Virus record (IMG/VR): IMGVR_UViG_2734482785_000001
Location: 1 to 7,445 of that record
Length of the DNA: 7,445 bases
DNA from: a virus
Taxonomy: Monodnaviria > Loebvirae > Hofneiviricota > Faserviricetes > Tubulavirales > Inoviridae
Direction: 5' to 3' (one strand)
Positions 1-7,445 of the stretch are shown piece after piece. The number at the start of each line of letters is the position of its first letter. Position 1 is the stretch's first letter. Position numbers and translations under genes: made by a program. The notes under the pieces are model-generated. The model ran no database searches. It saw only the letters and a list, made by a program, of their open reading frames with translations, and had not been told where the DNA came from.

Positions 1-1
1 A

Positions 2-103
2 CATTGGTACGCATAATGTAGTATGCGTTATGTTGAAAAGGCCGCTGCTAGACTTTCATCCGGCAGCGGCCTTTTTATACATAACGCCATTGTGCGTACC
101 AAA
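2..103. repeat. Long imperfect inverted repeat (hairpin) with dif-like arms enclosing a terminator stem
   Basis: Read directly: 4-18 (TTGGTACGCATAATG) is complementary to 88-102 with one T/G mismatch; 25-33 (GCGTTATGT) is complementary to 79-87; 19-24 (TAGTAT) is an unpaired bulge. 6-16 GGTACGCATAA resembles the E. coli dif XerC arm GGTGCGCATAA and 28-38 TTATGTTGAAA resembles the XerD arm TTATGTTAAAT. Confidence 0.6.
36..77. terminator. Bidirectional rho-independent terminator (9-bp GC-rich stem, A-run 5-prime, T-run 3-prime)
   Basis: Stem 40-48 GGCCGCTGC pairs with 63-71 GCAGCGGCC, loop 49-62, flanked by AAAA (36-39) and TTTTT (72-76). It lies just downstream of the minus-strand ORF ending at 108. 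Confidence 0.75.
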
Positions 104-107
104 TTTT

Positions 108-509
108 TTATTTTTCAGATTTGAATAGAGGATCTACTTTGTAGATTAAAGGAACTATTTCATAATTCATTCTTGGGAATGTCATTATCCTTATCATCAT
201 TGCTGCTTTTCTTTCATCATCGAATATGAGTGCATCCCTTAAATTTCTTGTCCATTCAGCTTTTTCACCCCCTTCAAAGTCATGCGTCAAACCCTTGAAA
301 TATAAAGCTTTTTTCTTTTTTCTTATAGTGTATGCTTTAGCTTCATTCATGACGATGTATTGAAAGTCCAGTTCTCCAATAGGGCATTCTATTAATGCTT
401 CTGTCTCTTTGATTTTTTCAACTATTCTTTCTGATAATTGTTCGCAGTCTAAGCAGTTGGCTTTTTCAATAACAACTATTTTTTTCCTTTTTCCATCTTT
501 TTTAAGCAT
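108..509 (-). CDS. Hypothetical protein (133 aa), function unknown; second gene of divergent accessory module
   Basis: Intact ATG-initiated ORF with no competing ORF, followed in its own orientation by the terminator at 36-77. Lys/Glu-rich; I recognise no family motif. Confidence 0.55.
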   Translation of the reverse strand: MLKKDGKRKKIVVIEKANCLDCEQLSERIVEKIKETEALIECPIGELDFQYIVMNEAKAYTIRKKKKALYFKGLTHDFEGGEKAEWTRNLRDALIFDDERKAAMMIRIMTFPRMNYEIVPLIYKVDPLFKSEK

Positions 510-540
510 GGTCTTTTTTCTTCATTTGGTTAAAATTTGC

Positions 541-596
541 ACCGCGAAGCGGTTCGGGGTTCTGTGACACCCGAACTTTGGTGCGGTTTCCCGCAC
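541..596. other. Cluster of three short GC-rich stem-loops in an AT-rich intergenic spacer
   Basis: H1: 541-545 ACCGC / 549-553 GCGGT, loop GAA. H2: 552-558 GTTCGGG / 570-576 CCCGAAC, 11-nt loop. H3: 581-586 GTGCGG / 591-596 CCGCAC, loop TTTC, followed on the plus strand by TTATTTTTT (597-605). Confidence 0.5.
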
Positions 597-905
597 TTAT
601 TTTTTGTATAGTCCGTTTTTTTCGTTCTCTTCATAAGCTTTATTCACTCGATCATGCCGCCTTTTTTCTGCTTCTTCGTGCGCTTCGTAGAATCGAGTGT
701 GATTCTCTGCCTCTAATGCTTTTCTTTTTATGTTGCTTACCACATCTTTAGCAGCATCTTTTGCATAATTATCAATGAGATAATTAACTATATCCGTCCA
801 CGCTATAGATGTTCCTGCTTCTTGGCTTGCATCGATAGCCAATCGTTCCATTTTGATTTTACGCTCGGCAGTAATTGCCATCGTAGTTCGCTTGAATAGT
901 GCCAT
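597..905 (-). CDS. Putative ribbon-helix-helix (RHH)-like DNA-binding regulator (102 aa), divergent from gII
   Basis: ORF on the minus strand whose start faces the gII start across a 72-bp spacer. The N-terminal region (KIKMERLAIDASQEAG-TS-IAWTDIVNYLI) fits a beta-strand/helix/G-x-S-T turn/helix pattern seen in Arc/CopG/ParD-type RHH proteins. Start codon choice (M1 vs M9) is uncertain. Confidence 0.5.
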   Translation of the reverse strand: MALFKRTTMAITAERKIKMERLAIDASQEAGTSIAWTDIVNYLIDNYAKDAAKDVVSNIKRKALEAENHTRFYEAHEEAEKRRHDRVNKAYEENEKNGLYKK

Positions 906-977
906 CTCATTTCTAACCTTTGGGTGGAATTAGGGTAGGTATCTTATCGTAATGCATGTGCTTGCGTATCTGCATGC
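906..977. promoter_or_regulatory. Divergent control region between the RHH gene and gII, with palindromic ATGCATGC-type repeats continuing into the gII 5-prime end
   Basis: 72-bp spacer between divergent starts. ATGCATG at 952-958 and TGCATGC at 971-977, with further copies at 980-987 and 1024-1032; GTATCT repeated at about 936, 966 and 989. Confidence 0.4.
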
Positions 978-2165
978 TTGCATGCATCTGTATCTGTGTG
1001 CTATAAATTTTTTATTGATATACATGCATGCAGGTATAAGGGCTTTGTTGTGTTCTACGATTGGTTGAGTATTGAACAGGATTTTGGCTACCAATTACCC
1101 ATCCTTTCAGATGTGGCTTATCAGCGTATTCATCTTGATAGCGGTGAAGCCAGTGCTTTATCTCAACCAACCTTCCAGCATCGTGGTTCTTTCTGTGATG
1201 TTGTCTCGATCTCGATCCGTGGTTCAGTGTTAAAAATGACTGGAAACCCTTCTCGCTGGGGACGTCTTGATAATCTCTTTGGCCTTCCGACTGTAGATAC
1301 TTGTGTCATGGTATTTAATCAGATTCTAACTGAACTGAAATTACCTTTATTTACCAAGTGTACAAAGTTAATGCCTGGACAATCGAAAGAGAATGAAAAA
1401 GCCCATTTGATTACTGATGGTGCTTTAATTAAAGAACTGCATATAACATCAAACAAATCAGTAGGGAAGGGGAATGAGGATGATTATATATCAGGTCTTT
1501 CTACTCAACCTTACAGGAATAGTATTCCACGGTTGCATTCCAATGGGAAATCTGTTGACTGGCTTTCAAAAAAAGGCAATGTCAATCTTATATACCCAAC
1601 AGTATATAACAAAGCTCATGAGCTTGAGTTGCATAGTCTTGCGAAAATCAAAAATAAATTCCCAGATGATTCTAAAGAATTTAATTATATAATGAATGTT
1701 ATTAATTACTGCAAGGACAACGGCATTGTCAGGTTTGAACAGAAATTAAAGTCTCGTTTTCTTCAAAAAAAATCTCTGTGCTATTGGGGACTTTCTGATT
1801 ATTCTTTGTTAAATAAGTTACATTCTGAATTTCTTGAGCTTGATGAAAAGTTATCGGTGAATGCTATGGACTTTGAAACTATTAGTGAACATCTTATTAG
1901 TCGTGGTGTTGTTGACACTACTCGTGCTGCCAATACTACAGCCATGTATGCAATTCAATGGTTTCATGGCCATTCTTTTGATTTAAATAAAAGGCAAGTA
2001 AAACAACATCGAGCAAGATTAAGAATGATAGGGATTGATATTGCTCAAAAATGTAATGTTTCCAAATTTTCTCCTGTTGTTGTGAAACAAACAAGAGAAA
2101 TAACCGTTTCGGATTGTGTTATTCCTTCTTGGTATATAAAGCCATCTTATTTACGTGCAGCTTAA
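978..2165 (+). CDS. II: Gene II-type rolling-circle replication initiation protein (pII family)
   Basis: 395-aa ORF. Recalled Ff pII-like motifs: N-terminal FIDxxxC, NPSRWGRLDNLFG (cf. ASPAKVLQGHNVFG) and VRFEQKLKSRFL (cf. VRFEARIKTRYL). Position and size match Ff gII. The start at 978 is TTG with no clear SD; alternatives are GTG 996 or GTG 1050 (the latter preceded by AAGGG). Confidence 0.85.
   Translation: MHASVSVCYKFFIDIHACRYKGFVVFYDWLSIEQDFGYQLPILSDVAYQRIHLDSGEASALSQPTFQHRGSFCDVVSISIRGSVLKMTGNPSRWGRLDNLFGLPTVDTCVMVFNQILTELKLPLFTKCTKLMPGQSKENEKAHLITDGALIKELHITSNKSVGKGNEDDYISGLSTQPYRNSIPRLHSNGKSVDWLSKKGNVNLIYPTVYNKAHELELHSLAKIKNKFPDDSKEFNYIMNVINYCKDNGIVRFEQKLKSRFLQKKSLCYWGLSDYSLLNKLHSEFLELDEKLSVNAMDFETISEHLISRGVVDTTRAANTTAMYAIQWFHGHSFDLNKRQVKQHRARLRMIGIDIAQKCNVSKFSPVVVKQTREITVSDCVIPSWYIKPSYLRAA
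1866..2165 (+). CDS. X: Candidate gene X-like in-frame internal product (C-terminal 99 aa of pII)
   Basis: In-frame ATG at 1866 (Met297 of 395) preceded by GGTGA about 6 nt upstream; proportionally analogous to Ff pX, which starts at Met300 of 410. Inference by analogy only. Confidence 0.3.
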   Translation: MDFETISEHLISRGVVDTTRAANTTAMYAIQWFHGHSFDLNKRQVKQHRARLRMIGIDIAQKCNVSKFSPVVVKQTREITVSDCVIPSWYIKPSYLRAA

Positions 2166-2178
2166 TATTAGGTGTATT

Positions 2179-2451
2179 ATGATTAAGATTGAAATTAAAC
2201 CTTCTCAAGCTGTTGTAGATACTCGTAGTGGTGTTTCTAAGAGCACTGGTAAACCATATACGATATCTGAACAGTCTGGTTATATTTTCCTCGGTGGGGA
2301 TTACCCTCAACTATTTAAAATTCCTCTTGAACAAGGCCAGGCTCCATATCCGGCTGGTTTGTATCAGTTGCATCCTTCCAGTATTTTTGTTGGTGACTTT
2401 CAAAAATTACGTATTGGTAAAATTGTTTTAATTTCTATTACAGAAAAGTGA
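2179..2451 (+). CDS. V: Gene V-type ssDNA-binding protein
   Basis: 90-aa product MIKIEIKPSQ...PYPAGLYQLHPSS... is clearly similar to recalled M13 and IKe gene V proteins. ATG at 2179 is preceded by AGGTG (2170-2174). The ORF-track start at 2155 overlaps gII and is rejected. Confidence 0.9.
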   Translation: MIKIEIKPSQAVVDTRSGVSKSTGKPYTISEQSGYIFLGGDYPQLFKIPLEQGQAPYPAGLYQLHPSSIFVGDFQKLRIGKIVLISITEK

Positions 2452-2457
2452 TAAGTT

Positions 2458-2685
2458 ATGGAATCTCATGATAAAGTTATTATTGCCTCTATTTGTGATA
2501 TTAAACCCAGTGGTGACTGTAAGGAAGTCAAGTTAACTTTTTCTGAGATTCCATACCAGCAATTCTCTGATATTGATTATTCAACATTTGCTCAATATTG
2601 GGGGGTTGCTTTTACTTCGGTTGTTGCTTTGTATTTATTTTCACATTGCATCAGCTTGATTATCAAGTTAATACGAAATGCATAA
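2458..2685 (+). CDS. Small protein with C-terminal hydrophobic helix in the gVII/gIX position (possible minor coat protein)
   Basis: 75-aa ORF between gV and gVIII; the C-terminal WGVAFTSVVALYLFSHCISLIIKL is a single predicted TM helix. Ff phages have two roughly 32-aa genes here, so the assignment is uncertain. Confidence 0.4.
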   Translation: MESHDKVIIASICDIKPSGDCKEVKLTFSEIPYQQFSDIDYSTFAQYWGVAFTSVVALYLFSHCISLIIKLIRNA

Positions 2686-2698
2686 ATGGTGGATTTTT

Positions 2699-2929
2699 AT
2701 GAAAAAGATCATTTCATTAGGTTCATTACTGGCAGCTTCATTTTCTATGCCTTCTTTTGCTGCTGAATCAGGTACACCTTCTTCAGGGGTTGATTTGAGT
2801 CAACTTACCAATTCAATTGATTTTGGTTCTGTTCTTACTGGTATTATGGCCGTAGCAGCATCATTAGTTGTACTTTATGCTGGTATTGCTGGCGTTCGTT
2901 GGATTCTTCGTACAGTTAAATCGGCTTAA
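2699..2929 (+). CDS. VIII: Gene VIII-type major coat protein precursor
   Basis: 76-aa product with signal peptide MKKIISLGSLLAASFSMPSFA and likely cleavage after SFA, an acidic/polar N-terminal mature segment, a hydrophobic core GIMAVAASLVVLYAGIAG and a basic C-terminus RWILRTVKSA. Followed immediately by a strong terminator, as in Ff. Confidence 0.85.
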   Translation: MKKIISLGSLLAASFSMPSFAAESGTPSSGVDLSQLTNSIDFGSVLTGIMAVAASLVVLYAGIAGVRWILRTVKSA

Positions 2930-2941
2930 TCTATTAAGGTA

Positions 2942-2965
2942 AGGGGAGTTCCTCCCCTTTTTTTG
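2942..2965 (+). terminator. Rho-independent terminator downstream of gVIII
   Basis: Stem 2942-2948 AGGGGAG pairs with 2952-2958 CTCCCCT, loop TTC, followed by a T-run through about 2964. Confidence 0.8.
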
Positions 2966-3015
2966 GTTATGATTTTAAATTTCTGGTATTTAATGAGTTT
3001 TTTCTGGGGACTTTT

Positions 3016-4488
3016 ATGCGCTTGGGCTGTAATCAAAGGGCTATCGCTTTAACATCTCTTTTTATATTTTTTTTCTCTTTATTAATTCCAGTGCAGAAAG
3101 TTTACTCTAATCCTTTACTTGTAACTAGGGCAGTTCTTCCAACTGTGCTTGGTAGGGTGATTTCATCTAGAGCTCTTCAGGTAACGACTACCGAATCTGC
3201 TTATTCATTAATGGTTCGGAATACATCTACAGCAGTATCTAAAACTGTGTTATCAAAATCGCCATCTATTGCCAGCAAGGGCTTTTTCCGTAGTGCTTCA
3301 GGTGCATTGACATGGGCTGGAGTTGGATATTCCGTTGGGTCTCTTACTGCTGAAAATTTTTCTGATAATGGTCGTTATTTAATTGCCACATCTGGTAAAG
3401 CTTTAGGTAACGGTAAATGGGAGGTTAATTTTGGTGATAAAACGTTTACTGTAGATTTTGAACCAACTTCTGATAATCCTTTTGTCATCAGTGCTGACTC
3501 ACTTAATATGAATAGTTATGATACTGTTGATAAGGTAAGTGCCGGTTATCGTTGGTGGCAATGTACTTATGGTACATCTTGTAAGGGGCCATTTATTGTA
3601 GGTTCTGTTACTGGGGTTGCTCAAGGATATTTTAATTCAGTTGCATCAGGTGGTGGTTTAACTTGCCGGGCACCTGATAAATCTTGTAGCTATAAGTTGA
3701 ATATTTTATCGGTAAATGAAGGACAAGAGGGGGCGGTCTCGGTTGTAAAATATATCTATACTTCTTCTTATTTAAATACAGATGGTGAGTCAATAACTAC
3801 TACTATTACTCCTATTCAGGGTATACAGGTGTATTTTAATAAGGATTTTGATAAGGCTCTAGAGGTTCTTTTTTCTGATTATAAGATGGCAACTGATGAT
3901 GATGGGTTTTCTGTTATGGATGGATTAAAGAAAGTTCCTATGGATTTGGATACTCTTGCTAAGATGATAAATAATTTATTAATGGACGCAGCATCCCAGC
4001 CAGATTATCAGGGAGTCCCTGTATCTTCAACAAATCCTGTAACATCGAATGAAATAAAAGTTGCTTATCCTAATTATGGTTCTTTGACAGAATTTGATTA
4101 TATGTATCCAGCTCAAAATTCACCATCTTCTGATGTGAATATTAGTGTGCCTGGATTTTCTTCTGGTGAATCAGGTGGCGGTTCTGATAATGGTACAAAT
4201 AATCCTGATTTTAGTCATCCAGACGTCCCTGAACCGACGCTAGATACACCACCTTCTGCGGAGGAGATACTTCGTCCAATTAAAGAACTTTTTAATCAGT
4301 ATCGAGATTTAGAAGTACGTCCATCAGGTCTTTCTGCTACATGTCCTGTTGCTAAATTTAATGTGTTTGATAGAGATTACGTTATTGATATGCATTGCGT
4401 ATTTTTGGAGGAATACCGTTCTTTTATTGGTGTCATTTCTTCTTTGATATGGGCTTTAATTTCCTTGCGTATTTTGCTTTCTACGTGA
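3016..4488 (+). CDS. III: Gene III-type minor coat / adsorption protein
   Basis: 490-aa ORF with SD GGGGA 5 nt upstream. N-terminal signal peptide, Cys pairs (WWQCTYGTSCKG, LTCRAPDKSCSY), a Gly/Ser-rich linker (SGESGGGSDNGTNN) and a C-terminal hydrophobic anchor (FIGVISSLIWALISLRILL); position after gVIII. Confidence 0.85.
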   Translation: MRLGCNQRAIALTSLFIFFFSLLIPVQKVYSNPLLVTRAVLPTVLGRVISSRALQVTTTESAYSLMVRNTSTAVSKTVLSKSPSIASKGFFRSASGALTWAGVGYSVGSLTAENFSDNGRYLIATSGKALGNGKWEVNFGDKTFTVDFEPTSDNPFVISADSLNMNSYDTVDKVSAGYRWWQCTYGTSCKGPFIVGSVTGVAQGYFNSVASGGGLTCRAPDKSCSYKLNILSVNEGQEGAVSVVKYIYTSSYLNTDGESITTTITPIQGIQVYFNKDFDKALEVLFSDYKMATDDDGFSVMDGLKKVPMDLDTLAKMINNLLMDAASQPDYQGVPVSSTNPVTSNEIKVAYPNYGSLTEFDYMYPAQNSPSSDVNISVPGFSSGESGGGSDNGTNNPDFSHPDVPEPTLDTPPSAEEILRPIKELFNQYRDLEVRPSGLSATCPVAKFNVFDRDYVIDMHCVFLEEYRSFIGVISSLIWALISLRILLST

Positions 4489-4503
4489 CATTGAGGTTTT
4501 AAA

Positions 4504-4797
4504 ATGGCTTTATTTGGATTGTTATTTAGTATCGTTAATGTTCTTTTAGGTTTTATTTTTAGAACTGTTATCATTAGGTTTGTTTTGTTTTTTGGACTTC
4601 TTTTTGTTGTTCATGAGTTCATTTATGTATTATCTTCATGGATACCATTTAATTTTAACATACCAGCTTTATTTCGAGCTTTACCTGCTCCTATGTGGTA
4701 TTTTTTTGATTTATTTAAGTTCAATGAAGGTTTTCAGTTAATATTTAACGCATATATTACTCGTTTTATTATTCGTAGAATTCCGATTATTGGTTAG
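4504..4797 (+). CDS. VI: Gene VI-type minor coat protein (hydrophobic)
   Basis: 97-aa highly hydrophobic ORF with SD GAGG 7 nt upstream of ATG 4504. Position between gIII and gI and size are comparable to Ff pVI (112 aa). Confidence 0.7.
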   Translation: MALFGLLFSIVNVLLGFIFRTVIIRFVLFFGLLFVVHEFIYVLSSWIPFNFNIPALFRALPAPMWYFFDLFKFNEGFQLIFNAYITRFIIRRIPIIG

Positions 4798-4801
4798 TGT
4801 T

Positions 4802-5839
4802 ATGCCTATTTCTGCTTATGTTGGTTCTTTAGGTAGTGGTAAATCATACGAGGTTGTTTCTAGTGTTATTGTACCTGCTTGTTCTTCTGGGCGTCGTGTT
4901 GTTACTAATATTTACGGTATAAATAAAGATAAAATTCATGCTTATTGCATGAAAAAATCAAAATCGGGGAAAGATATATCCTTAGGTGATGTTATTTATG
5001 TTTCTAATGATGATATCAAAGCTGATGATTTTTTCCCATATAAAGATTCTCGTCCTGAAGATACATTTTGTCAGTATGGAGATTTGATTGTTATTGATGA
5101 ATCCTGGCGCATTTGGGATAGTGACAAATCCATTTGTGAGAATCATCGTTCATTTATTGCAGAGCATCGTCATTTTACTAATATTGAAACTGGTGTTTGT
5201 TGTGACCTTGTTGTTATAAATCAGGAGGTTTCTTCTTTACCTCGTTTTATTAAAGCAAGGTTAGACACTACTTTTAGAATGCAAAAGCATATTGCTATTG
5301 GCATGAAGAGTCGTTATCGTGTCGATGTTTTTAATGGTTCTAAACTTTATAAGTCAAACAAGATTACAAGTTATCAGAGGAAATATAATCCAGATATATT
5401 TCCTTTGTATAAATCATATGAGAATGGGGATGGCAAAGAACTTACTGTTGATAATCGGGCTAGCATTTTAGGCAAGAAAAGTTTGTATTTTGTTGTTCTT
5501 GCTATGATTCTCATTTTCATATTTAGCATTGGTTATCTTTATAGGTTTTTTAATGGTGGTTTGGTCAAGAGTGATGCTTCTGACTTGCCGCCTCAGGACT
5601 CTAATTTCCGTTCTGTTAATTTTAATTCAGTTCCTGAAATTCCAAATACACCTAAATTATCTTCAACTTGGCGTATCGTTGGAAAACTTGAAAGAGAAGG
5701 GCGTAGTTATGTGATAATTACAAATAATTCAGGTCTTGTCCGTATGGTTCCTGCTTCTACCTTTAATTATCAAGGTGTTTTACTTACAGGAATTGTTGAT
5801 GGTGAGCTTGTTACTTTTTATTCAGGTGGTGACAAATGA
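4802..5839 (+). CDS. I: Gene I-type assembly ATPase (Zot-family P-loop NTPase)
   Basis: Walker A GSLGSGKS about 10 residues from the N-terminus (cf. M13 GKLGSGKT), Walker B LIVIDESW, and an internal TM segment LYFVVLAMILIFIFSIGYLY. ATG 4802 is preferred over the ORF-track TTG at 4790, which overlaps the gVI stop. Stop overlaps the gIV start (ATGA at 5836-5839). Confidence 0.9.
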   Translation: MPISAYVGSLGSGKSYEVVSSVIVPACSSGRRVVTNIYGINKDKIHAYCMKKSKSGKDISLGDVIYVSNDDIKADDFFPYKDSRPEDTFCQYGDLIVIDESWRIWDSDKSICENHRSFIAEHRHFTNIETGVCCDLVVINQEVSSLPRFIKARLDTTFRMQKHIAIGMKSRYRVDVFNGSKLYKSNKITSYQRKYNPDIFPLYKSYENGDGKELTVDNRASILGKKSLYFVVLAMILIFIFSIGYLYRFFNGGLVKSDASDLPPQDSNFRSVNFNSVPEIPNTPKLSSTWRIVGKLEREGRSYVIITNNSGLVRMVPASTFNYQGVLLTGIVDGELVTFYSGGDK

Positions 5840-7026
5840 AACGTTTAATATCTCTGTTCTTGATGTTTTTTAGTTTTTCTTGTTTTTCTGCTACTGAGCT
5901 TGAAATAAAAAAACTTGCTTTACCTGAGGCTATTTCTTTGATTTATTCAGAGGTCTTTAAGGTTCCTTATATGATTTCTCCTGATTTAGCCAATGACCAA
6001 CGCCTTGTTTCATTTAAAATAACCAAGGATGTTAATGAGCGTGATTTTATTGAACGTTATTTTTCTAATATGAACATTAAAATTCATACAAAAAAAGGTG
6101 TTGACTACATAACGCCTTTTAAACCTCAAGAAAAAAAAACCATTTTAAAGGTTTTTGTGTATTCTCCATTAAATCGTTCAGTTGGTTATTTGTCTGATAT
6201 TCTCTCTGGTTTTGTATCTGGTCAATTTGGAAATTCAGGAAATATAAGCACTAACATATCCAGTACTTCTTCTTCAGGGGCTTCTAATAATTTCAATAGG
6301 TTAGGTGATTCTCTTGTGTATTATGGCACACAAAAAGATATTGACATTATCAAGAGCATATTGCCAACCATTGATACGGTTCCTGATGAGGTTGTTGTTT
6401 CAGGATATGTTTTTGAGGTTCAGACTGGTCAGAATGATGGCTCAGGATTTTTACTTGCTGCTAAAGTTATATCTGAAAAATTTAATATTTCTCTTGGCTC
6501 TAACATTAGTACTTCTGGTGATTTTTTGAGTTTAAAAACAGGTTCAATTGATGCAATTTATACATTACTTTCAACTGATAACAGATTTTCTGTTGTATCT
6601 TCGCCAAGATTGCGCGTGAAGAATAATACAGAGGCTTCTTTTTCTGTAGGTGCCGATGTTCCTGTTTTAGGTAGTGTTACAGTTAATGGTAATAATTCAA
6701 CCCAGTCTGTTGAGTATCGTAGCTCAGGGGTTTTGTTTAGAGTGAAACCATCTATTAAAATCAACGCTATTGATTTGAACATTCAACAGCAGCTTTCTAA
6801 TTTTGTTGCAACTGATACTGGCGTTAATAATTCTCCGACGCTTTTAAAGCGAGATGTGACAACAGACGTTGTTATGAATGATGGTGATATTATTTTGATA
6901 GGAGGCCTTGCAGAGCAGAAGGATTCTAAATCTTCGTCTGGTTGGTCTATTTTTGGCTCACGTTCATCAGAAAATTCTAAGACAGATATTGTTGTGATGC
7001 TTCAGGTTCGCAAAGTACCAAGATGA
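5836..7026 (+). CDS. IV: Gene IV-type secretin (outer-membrane export channel)
   Basis: 396-aa ORF with SD AGGTGG upstream and an N-terminal signal peptide. Recalled pIV-like segments: VSGYVFEVQTGQ (cf. IEGLIFEVQQG), SSPRLRVKNN...VGADVPV (cf. SVPRILTLSG...VGQNVPF), DGDIILIGGL (cf. DGQTLLLGGL), and a C-terminal S-domain-like tail. Confidence 0.9.
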   Translation: MKRLISLFLMFFSFSCFSATELEIKKLALPEAISLIYSEVFKVPYMISPDLANDQRLVSFKITKDVNERDFIERYFSNMNIKIHTKKGVDYITPFKPQEKKTILKVFVYSPLNRSVGYLSDILSGFVSGQFGNSGNISTNISSTSSSGASNNFNRLGDSLVYYGTQKDIDIIKSILPTIDTVPDEVVVSGYVFEVQTGQNDGSGFLLAAKVISEKFNISLGSNISTSGDFLSLKTGSIDAIYTLLSTDNRFSVVSSPRLRVKNNTEASFSVGADVPVLGSVTVNGNNSTQSVEYRSSGVLFRVKPSIKINAIDLNIQQQLSNFVATDTGVNNSPTLLKRDVTTDVVMNDGDIILIGGLAEQKDSKSSSGWSIFGSRSSENSKTDIVVMLQVRKVPR

Positions 7027-7029
7027 GAA

Positions 7030-7071
7030 TTCTGTCCGATCCCCGCAGCTTTGCGAGGAGAACGGACAGAA
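7030..7071 (+). other. Imperfect hairpin immediately after the gIV stop (candidate terminator or packaging-signal-like element)
   Basis: Stem 7030-7038 TTCTGTCCG pairs with 7063-7071 CGGACAGAA around a 24-nt partly self-complementary loop. No T-run directly follows; AGATGA occurs at 7021-7026 and 7071-7076. Confidence 0.45.
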
Positions 7072-7129
7072 GATGAATCTTGGTTTATGGCATTTTTTAA
7101 GCAATATGACGATGTTTGTTTTATTGTTT

Positions 7130-7445
7130 TTATGCCGTCAGGCATGGAAGGCGGCATGATGATGTTTCATGTTGTGCCTTTGGTTGTCCGCCGATACCAG
7201 GGAGATATGTCATAGTGCGCGGAACAGCGCAACGCGCCCCCTGCAAAGCCGGGTTTTCATTGCAGTTATCGAGACGAACGGCGCAAGACGTGAGTCGTCC
7301 AGGCGGCGTTAATGCTTGTTGATGGAATTGATCGCTTTCATCGGGCATGACAAAATCTAAAAGCCGGTGACGGGGTTTCGTTAACTGTGGTGGTTTGTTT
7401 CTCCTGGTATCCGGCAAGCCTAAATTCCTCTTTACGGGCTGATGC
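7130..7445. other. GC-rich (about 55%) flank with no convincing ORF; host flank or structured phage non-coding region
   Basis: Hand count of 7201-7320 gives about 55-58% GC against about 32% in a gIV sample (6001-6060). The only ORFs (7116..7322 plus, 7130..7417 minus) overlap on opposite strands and have Pro/Arg/Cys-biased composition. Confidence 0.4.

Follow-up and report, generated by a model that had tools for sequence, protein, structure and literature searches.

The stretch of DNA analysed here, called the window throughout (7,445 nucleotides, nt; the full length of IMG/VR record IMGVR_UViG_2734482785_000001), is one complete unit of a circular, dif-integrating, If1/Ff-like inovirus, and our subject is the GC-rich segment at its end, the tail (7027-7445), which follows the secretin gene gIV. 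The window encodes a complete Ff-like gene set on the plus strand, comprising gII (978/1050-2165; PF05155), gV (2155/2179-2451; PF02303), small coat genes, gIII (3016-4488), gVI (4504-4797), the Zot family gene gI (4790/4802-5839), and gIV (5836-7026), for which an identical product matches Secretin (PF00263). The gIV stop codon, TGA at 7024-7026, forms the left boundary of the intergenic region. Two open reading frames (ORFs) occupy the minus strand at 108-509 and 597-905, and the order in the circle is gIV, the tail, the phage attachment site attP, the minus-strand ORFs, and gII. At the DNA level, the likeness of the window to characterised phages is confined to gII and a short non-coding block, both shared with If1.

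The initial annotation had offered two explanations for the tail, either a prophage-host junction or a highly structured phage intergenic region carrying packaging and origin elements. We used the gIV product in an exact-protein look-up and found the same phage (99.9% identity) in three settings: a tandem pair (loci L029/L030) on a 1.94-Mb contig, flanked by hipA on one side and a fimbrial operon on the other; a lone prophage in that same position (L031); and the stand-alone contigs L032 (7,465 bp) and L033 (7,456 bp). The window equals L032 1-7445, and L032 (GCA_000798235.1, JUCF01000057.1) ends with a 20-bp terminal direct overlap (window 1-20 = L032 7446-7465), which indicates a circular or tandem-collapsed assembly. 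The tandem copies L029 and L030 are spaced exactly 7,445 bp apart, with window position 1 directly after position 7445, and the same end-to-start adjacency, with the same spacing, is found in a related tandem prophage (L001, E. coli 300709) and in a complete circular 7,439-bp replicon (L002, E. coli A37), an episome in which the homologue of the tail is internal.

What follows position 7445 in the circle is attP (4-102, plus strand), an imperfect hairpin of ~100 nt (folding free energy -34.8 kcal/mol, z score -8.7) with an XerC-type arm (GGTACGCATAA) and TGTA crossover at 6-20, a 6-nt bulge, and a degenerate XerD-like arm. Its inner GC hairpin (40-75), with A and T runs on the flanks, resembles a bidirectional terminator. 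Conserved at 82-88% across many loci, the element has the look of a folded attP of the CTX type that doubles as such a terminator. In L029 and L031, attL joins host GGTGCGCATAATGTA to phage GTATGCGTTATG (GTATGCG...), and attR joins phage ACATTGGTACGCATAATGTA to host TATTATGTTAAAT, restoring dif with 1 mismatch; the joint between the copies in L029 reads GGGCTGATGC followed by ACATTGGTACGCATAATGTAGTATGCG. The attL and attR sequences together place the crossover within GCATAATGTA, the single-copy lysogen L031 has the same right junction as L029, and recombination of 4-102 with host dif gives hybrid attL and attR sites, as for an Xer-dependent attP.

Host DNA starts only past phage GGTACGCATAATGTA (window 6-20), where the host dif half TATTATGTTAAAT rebuilds the dif site. 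Since host DNA begins, after wrap-round, at window ~20, the whole of 7027-7445 falls on the phage side, and we regard it as practically certain that the tail is phage intergenic DNA and not host DNA. This refutes the host-junction claim, as the tail is internal to the tandem array and to the episome and the true junction (attR) lies at window ~20. The initial statement that no dif-like sequence is present on this side holds for the linear window, but in the circle or the tandem array the dif-like site at 6-20 directly follows 7445; it appeared to be missing on the gIV side because the circle was opened there. The integration model, then judged incomplete, is completed by attP at the window start. 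The composition switch after gIV is no evidence of a host flank, and the attachment site seemed "missing" only through the choice of cut point in the circle.

The compositional change itself is clear. GC content is 0.492 over 7027-7445, 0.522 over 7130-7445, and 0.536 over 7126-7345, compared with 0.353 over 1-7026, and all other 419-nt stretches of the window are at or below 0.430 (mean 0.351, standard deviation 0.030). From the gIV stop onward, 100-nt bins have values of 0.41, 0.50, 0.58, and 0.46, so the switch does occur ~100 nt past the stop as first described; the contrast then given, ~55% against ~33%, was slightly overstated (0.49-0.54 against 0.353). The high GC content simply reflects what these hairpin-forming elements of constrained sequence are made of, in a phage that is AT-rich.

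The lack of a convincing ORF, also reported initially, is borne out by checks of frames, Pfam, substitutions, and gene calls. The longest ORF over the tail in circular context (109 amino acids, aa; minus strand) has no Pfam match, its frame shrinks to 12 codons in other lineages, and it shows no excess of third-position substitutions (8/16/10, 6/12/7, and 25/25/22); the recorded gene calls of L029 and L031 place no gene in the tail. The minus-strand frame noted earlier at the window end (ASARKEEF...CHAR*) appears, when the reverse complement of 7339-7445 is read by eye, to be a real 35-codon open stretch; it is absent among the ORFs of at least 30 aa that were listed. No tRNA or tmRNA was found. 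Within the conserved core described below, 1-nt insertions or deletions occur and a reading frame common to the lineages is absent, and these two properties together exclude that the core is coding.

The hairpin that the initial annotation placed at the junction is likewise real. This element, H0 (7031-7070, plus strand), is 40 nt long with stem segments of 9, 2, 2, and 4 bp, has a folding free energy of -15.5 kcal/mol (z -6.2), and was matched by 0 of 200 shuffles. Relative to L001 it carries one compensatory double change (TCTGTCCG/CGGACAGA to TCTGGCCG/CGGCCAGA). H0 is confined to the window lineage (the window, L001/L012, and L029-L033), and its stem segments total ~17 bp versus 22-24 bp in the packaging hairpins of Ff and IKe. 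It is a lineage-specific candidate for a packaging (morphogenetic) signal or for a structure at the 3' end of gIV. H0 is separated from the core by a poorly conserved AT-rich spacer (7071-7125). Against relatives, substitutions number 12-22 per 50 nt in this spacer and 2-5 in the core, and 7027-7125 overall is 40% GC. A variable spacer of 48% GC leads from the core to attP (7346-7445); it is conserved in close relatives only and has 9-12 substitutions per 50 nt relative to L001. Counted per 50 nt from the gIV stop, substitutions relative to L001 number 4, 12, 3, 4, 2, 4, 4, 9, and 12, and in close relatives H0 and the core are conserved while both spacers are not.

The main feature of the tail is a conserved non-coding core of ~210 nt (~7126-7345, plus strand; 53.6% GC), which is found at 74-93% identity in ~48 loci. 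Distinct full-length cores number 30, of which 29 were aligned with a mean column identity of 77%, and near-invariant runs include ACAGCGCAACGCGCC and GAGACGA.CG.CGCAAG.CGTGAGTCG. The core occurs in 66 of 5,426 complete E. coli genomes, at 191 places and in up to 11 copies per genome, the multiple copies representing tandem prophages and tandem satellite units at dif. It is also present in plasmids of E. coli, E. albertii, and Proteus (12 records, E <= 1e-5), in IMG/VR contigs, and in metagenome contigs, where 18 of the 96 pattern matches are true members. The match on a Proteus IncC plasmid (L004) has a clear inovirus prophage context; three other plasmid contexts that we inspected are largely unannotated, with insertion sequence (IS) elements or an autotransporter gene nearby, and none lies beside annotated leading-region genes. 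Four viral pattern matches (L023, L024, L025, and L027) are due to chance. In species-representative genomes, the two-block core pattern found nothing, and a looser pattern returned 86 chance matches, mostly in high-GC bacteria, none of them confirmed by the profile. The core is a cis module that many inovirus elements of E. coli, E. albertii, and Proteus have in common, be they prophages, episomes, or satellite or mini-elements with few genes, and its conserved blocks are usable as markers for inovirus prophages and satellites overlooked by gene-based tools. We also note a 95% match to plasmid records of Arsenophonus nasoniae (H33, H34) at window 7119-7156 (39 nt, spanning the first core hairpin, P1), and that the same stretch matches one Arsenophonus record of the phage collection at 91% over 34 nt (H35), which hints that parts of the element may exist outside Escherichia and Proteus.

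The core is oriented with the phage gene strand in 38 of 38 loci, a strand that is the packaged (+) strand and equally the sense RNA strand. In most lineages it starts at the gIV stop, within ~20 nt. Its partners are diverse: the accompanying Rep types are an If1-like pII (and a 46-57% identical relative), a satellite "II/X" Rep, and a "replication endonuclease," and the assembly proteins encoded beside it are 27-100% (pI) and 39-100% (pIV) identical to those of the window. Near-identical cores accompany different Rep families in L010 and L015, and L011 has a 93%-identical core beside a pIV of only 54% identity. The core is also kept in Rep-only satellites (L009, L106) and in Rep-less units of the L006 type, which have attP-like sites at their bounds. 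The spacing from core to attP varies by lineage, and that from core to dif is ~100-280 nt.

Five local hairpins recur in the core, all on the plus strand. P1 (7132-7145; ATGCC-GTCA-GGCAT) is kept in all lineages with a variable stem length and a swap between ATGCC/GGCAT and ATGTCC/GGACAT; it was scored sequence by sequence, as the MAFFT alignment mis-registers it. P2 (7150-7192; GGCGG...CCGCC) encloses P2a (7155-7171; CATGA...TCATG), changes to GGCCG/CGGCC in 6 of 29 sequences, and has 97% of its cells paired; P1-P2 folds with z -3.3 on the plus strand. P3 (7227-7237; GCGC-AAC-GCGC) is a mini-hairpin inside the near-invariant ACAGCGCAACGCGCC, and since its four pairs are all invariant in the 29 sequences it gives no covariation evidence either way. 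P4 (7241-7265) is CTGCA...TGCAG in the window versus CTGCC/GGCAG in most lineages, with 92% of cells paired. P5 (7273-7296; GACGAACGGC-GCAA-GACGTGAGTC) has 10 tiers, a GCAA or GCGA tetraloop, and tandem G.A tiers. Seven of its tiers are near-invariant Watson-Crick pairs (one being G.T in 5 sequences), two are invariant G.A, and the third G.A tier is G.A in 18 sequences, A.G in 11, and nothing else. By the nearest-neighbour model alone P5 would not count as stable (z -1.1). A conserved 3' block (7309-7333, plus strand) contains TTGATG-like direct repeats, TTAATG..TTGATG..TTGATC in the window and TTGATGAAATTGATGAC in most lineages.

Compensatory changes are seen in H0, P1, P2, and P4. Across the hairpin set, which was derived from the same aligned sequences on which pairing was scored, 79% of cells are paired versus 19-48% in slid controls, and two-sided changes exceed those in 500 of 500 shuffles. 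Several properties relate to the strand on which the hairpins form: the core hairpins contain 19 G.T cells versus 11 A.C cells, the whole tail folds with z -4.1 on the plus strand versus -2.7 on the minus strand, and the G.A tiers of P5 make sense only on the plus strand because the opposite strand would present pyrimidine-pyrimidine mismatches. No global consensus fold recurs: RNAalifold finds 17-30 pairs only, and beyond the small hairpins the folds of individual sequences differ. Above all, the core is an element of conserved sequence that contains local hairpins.

In position and composition the tail resembles the large intergenic region of the Ff phages (M13/f1/fd) and IKe, which is also non-coding, lies directly after gIV, and is GC-richer than the rest of the circular genome; the first 100-nt bins after gIV are 0.64/0.56 in M13, 0.59/0.52 in IKe, and 0.60 in If1, in genomes of 0.41-0.44. 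In the IKe record, the gIV stop is marked by a "morphogenetic signal" stem-loop, the stem-loops of the minus-strand origin come 180-290 nt downstream, and the viral-strand origin lies beyond them. The same order is apparent here, with H0 in the same position as the first hairpin and additional, conserved hairpins 100-300 nt downstream. Inovirus intergenic regions contain the origin and packaging signals (International Committee on Taxonomy of Viruses profile, PMC8491893). The second explanation of the initial annotation is thus supported as to the identity of the region, non-coding phage DNA placed as in M13, IKe, and If1; packaging and origin elements suit this type of region, and which element does what we only infer. 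Unlike the Ff and IKe regions, the tail yielded no promoter-like hexamers, and it has no detectable sequence similarity to them; attP and a minus-strand regulatory module, and not directly the plus origin and gII, follow it, and the candidate plus origin (535-592, common to If1) is ~600 nt further on. The tail is an ordinary filamentous-phage intergenic region whose conserved core is new and uncharacterised.

Among dif-integrating enterobacterial inoviruses, UPphi901, CUSphi, and Ypfphi, as described in two reports (PMC7307601, PMC4266046), are similar to the present phage in forming tandem prophages at E. coli dif, in a dif-like site at the genome start with reverse ORFs next to it, and in modular gII/gV exchange. 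UPphi is reported to carry two novel genes in the region that is intergenic in IKe and M13, whereas no conserved ORF exists here, and term searches and selected sections of both reports gave no description of a non-coding segment after gIV. The likeness to CTXphi and integrative mobile elements exploiting Xer (IMEX) concerns the neighbouring attP and not the GC-rich segment: 4-102 is a long (+)-strand hairpin with an XerC-type arm, the crossover falls on the central region's XerC side, integration rebuilds dif at attR, and the tandem prophages are accompanied by satellite arrays comparable to RS1 and TLC. The cis signals of integrative filamentous phages are poorly known, packaging signals in particular being largely unknown (preprint 10.1101/2023.12.30.573655), and such phages are common in pathogenic E. 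coli, often in tandem at dif. The present analysis delimits candidates for these signals, namely, H0 at the gIV stop, the ~210-nt core, the 58-nt block common to If1, and the folded attP.

We consider it reasonably probable, taking the explanation as a whole, that the tail is a phage intergenic region whose core is a single-strand signal read by the host, namely, an origin of the complementary strand that may be combined with a packaging signal. The core would be read by conserved host machinery on entering single-stranded DNA (ssDNA) and would let an enzyme of the host, whether RNA polymerase, primase, or the PriA primosome, prime the complementary strand. The role of packaging signal may fall to H0, or to P1-P2 in lineages with a core that adjoins the gIV stop. 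A host reader is likely because the core is non-coding, strand-fixed, conserved despite diverged or exchanged phage proteins, and kept in helper-dependent, gene-poor elements. A complementary-strand origin is proposed because Ff and IKe have that origin just past the packaging hairpin after gIV; that the core includes one is, by this analogy, a tentative proposal nearly as apt to hold as to fail. The core shares with known single-strand initiation (ssi) signals (the Frpo type, the G4-type primase origin, and the phiX174-type PriA site) the proposed job, in which a host enzyme acting on folded ssDNA primes the complementary strand, as well as several hairpins in a GC-rich non-coding stretch.

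Several observations weigh against this explanation. No sigma-70-like -35/-10 pair was found on either strand of the tail, although a promoter split over two hairpins would escape the scan, and no long promoter-mimicking hairpin recurs across members, so an RNA-polymerase origin in the style of Ff or Frpo is unsupported. The core begins at the gIV stop in most lineages, which is the classical position of a packaging signal. Some lineages repeat its 3' part on its own, an arrangement not expected if the core were simply an origin. There is also a second non-coding block under conservation (535-592), whose assignment as a plus origin has one exception (L026). Rfam 15, searched with the linear window and with the sequence spanning the circular junction, gave no match in the tail (E <= 1); the core has no similarity to the intergenic regions of M13, IKe, and If1 (Smith-Waterman z 0.1-0.6; nhmmer E > 2); and blastn of the tail against phage records at E <= 10 gave short chance matches only, none of them to Ff, IKe, or If1. 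Covariation is modest, most pairs never varying, and the 220-nt core does not surpass shuffled sequences in folding (z -1.2 on the plus and -0.7 on the minus strand), so that the initial description as highly structured fits the junction hairpin and P1-P2, which are strong, but not the core as a whole.

The likeness to known ssi signals also has its limits. Unlike a Frpo-type ssDNA promoter, the core lacks a long promoter-mimic hairpin and -35, -10, and UP elements (criterion from PMC11541004). At the sequence level, a search of the phage collection at E <= 10 gave no similarity to the G4 or phiX174 signals. The core contains an invariant CCTG, a trinucleotide alone being no evidence of a primase start. 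GAAGGCGG may resemble an "AAGCGG"-like primosome assembly site (PAS) motif.

A different assignment of roles would make the core, or its 5' half P1-P2, the packaging signal, kept free of ssDNA-binding protein and read by the assembly machinery, with the complementary-strand origin located elsewhere, for example at 535-592. The onset of the core at most ~20 nt from the gIV stop in most lineages, as for the Ff/IKe packaging hairpin, its fixed strand orientation, and its retention by satellites and Rep-less mini-units that need helper packaging all suit this assignment, and for integrative inoviruses such signals are for the most part uncharacterised (bioRxiv 10.1101/2023.12.30.573655). The Ff/IKe signals, however, are single long hairpins with stems of 22-24 bp, whereas the core hairpins are short (4-10 tiers) and ~210 nt of primary sequence are conserved. 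Conservation of the core despite diverged pI (27-53%) and pIV (39-54%) is unexpected for a signal specific to a phage protein, and H0 gives the lineage of the window a hairpin candidate that is distinct from the core and better. We view packaging as an unlikely, if serious, explanation of the core. It is somewhat less likely that the core represents an undescribed class of host-read single-strand signal or structured RNA. As a portable cis module it would then circulate among Rep-less miniphage-like units, Rep-only satellites, and enterobacterial inoviruses unrelated to one another, and together with attP it would let gene-poor elements parasitise helpers, with a priming or recognition mechanism unlike an RNA-polymerase hairpin promoter, a G4-type primase site, or a PriA assembly site.

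The core could also act as RNA, either as a structured 3' untranslated region of the transcript of gIV (or of an upstream gene) or as a processed small RNA, and might then regulate or stabilise. In every case a plus-strand gene precedes it on the sense strand; going downstream, one meets the first hairpin of the intrinsic-terminator type with a T run at window 40-75; and both the GCAA/GCGA tetraloop and the G.A tiers are common in RNA. These motifs are also compatible with ssDNA, and the sense strand is at once the packaged DNA strand, so RNA is not favoured over DNA, and the negative Rfam search, the failure to find a promoter of its own, and the thermodynamically unexceptional fold leave an RNA function improbable.

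More doubtful still is a double-stranded regulatory or accessory site, such as the Xer accessory sequences of the cer and psi type, an operator, or an enhancer. The core does lie upstream of attP at a variable distance, and ~100-280 nt upstream of the rebuilt dif in prophages; some arrays reiterate its 3' half together with attP-like sites; and its long invariant blocks suggest protein contacts. The accessory sequences of cer and psi have a fixed geometry, whereas the spacing to attP or dif is variable here, and the traX-type lineage has the core with no dif-like site in its loci (up to 6 mismatches allowed). The orientation of the core, which agrees with that of the packaged strand at 38 of 38 loci, and the G.A-dependent hairpins point instead to the single-strand form, and we would give a duplex site little credence.

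That the segment encodes one or more small proteins, through the 109-aa minus-strand ORF or small plus-strand ORFs, is very improbable. Open frames of 47-109 aa are present, and RefSeq has an 82-aa minus-strand coding sequence (hypothetical protein) over the L001 homologue and a 50-aa plus-strand one in L002, but these two annotations are on opposite strands and the gene calls of L029 and L031 are empty here. No frame is open across lineages, the core having 1-nt insertions or deletions, no third-position bias, and no Pfam match, and the plus-strand ATG frame from P1 reaches a TAA in other lineages in the core alignment. The notion that the segment is host chromosome flanking an integrated phage can be dismissed almost entirely, since its E. 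coli-like composition (~50% GC), the end of the window within it, and the att site not seen on this side by the initial annotation are set against its presence in both tandem copies ahead of the phage's own start, its internal position in the circular 7,439-bp episome L002, and host DNA appearing only past window ~20, at the rebuilt dif site, with which the right junction of L031 agrees.

Other identities were considered for the core and rejected. A group II intron 5' end, an IS end, or a retron RNA is not consistent with copies that are tandem prophage or satellite units at dif and with the negative Rfam search. A Frpo/ssi element from the leading region of a conjugative plasmid was rejected because L004 is an inovirus prophage, the other contexts lack leading-region genes, and no promoter-mimic hairpin is present. 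A plus-strand origin was rejected on the basis of the near-identical cores with different Rep families in L010 and L015.

A candidate for the plus-strand origin is found outside the tail. The conserved non-coding block at 535-592 (58 nt) contains three small hairpins, one of them CCGCGAAGCGG, and the third, with a T run, is terminator-like on the plus strand. The block is 91% identical to If1 5045-5101, within the If1 "major intergenic region," and If1 is without the core. It is 83-91% conserved in satellites and in lineages with pII/X-type Reps, and because it mostly tracks these Reps (with the exception of L026), unlike the core, we take 535-592 as a candidate Rep-specific plus-strand origin and a better candidate than the core. 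Nearby, window 756-907, the N-terminal part of ORF 597-905, matches If1 (L008) 5161-5312 at 72%; this part of If1 is recorded as intergenic and may carry an unannotated minus-strand gene.

The occurrence of the core in satellite and miniphage-like elements offers a testable handle on their replication, packaging, and mobilisation, and several arrays are of interest in their own right. In the dif region of the E. coli JNE112863 chromosome (L009 1-12600), four tandem mini-elements of 3,674 nt adjoin a full inovirus prophage, an arrangement like that of the RS1 and TLC satellites of Vibrio; each contains a II/X family Rep, an SSB (a protein that binds single-stranded DNA), two small ORFs, the core, attP, and a 535-592-like block. 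An inovirus lineage with a TraX-like pilin acetylase gene (L004 6174-7190; also L003, L013, and L014) carries three tandem copies of a 339-nt unit, placed between the core and gIV and each opening with the core 3' end (...GATGATGTTGCCTGTTGATGAAACTGATGGCTGACAG...), and no dif-like site was found in these four traX-type loci. Arrays on IncF plasmids and metagenome contigs (L006 5029-7010; also L007, L052, L080, and L129) are built of a 1,422-nt unit and ~472-nt units with attP-like sites at their bounds, each with the core 3' half, and the genes for Rep, pI, and pIV are absent; these look like miniphage or microphage units. Finally, the region between the divergent ORF 597-905 and gII (window 930-1050) contains many TGCATGC-like repeats (gcatgtgcttgcgtatctgcatgcttgcatgcatctgtatctgtgtgc) and is likely the operator/promoter region of a repressor/gII switch.

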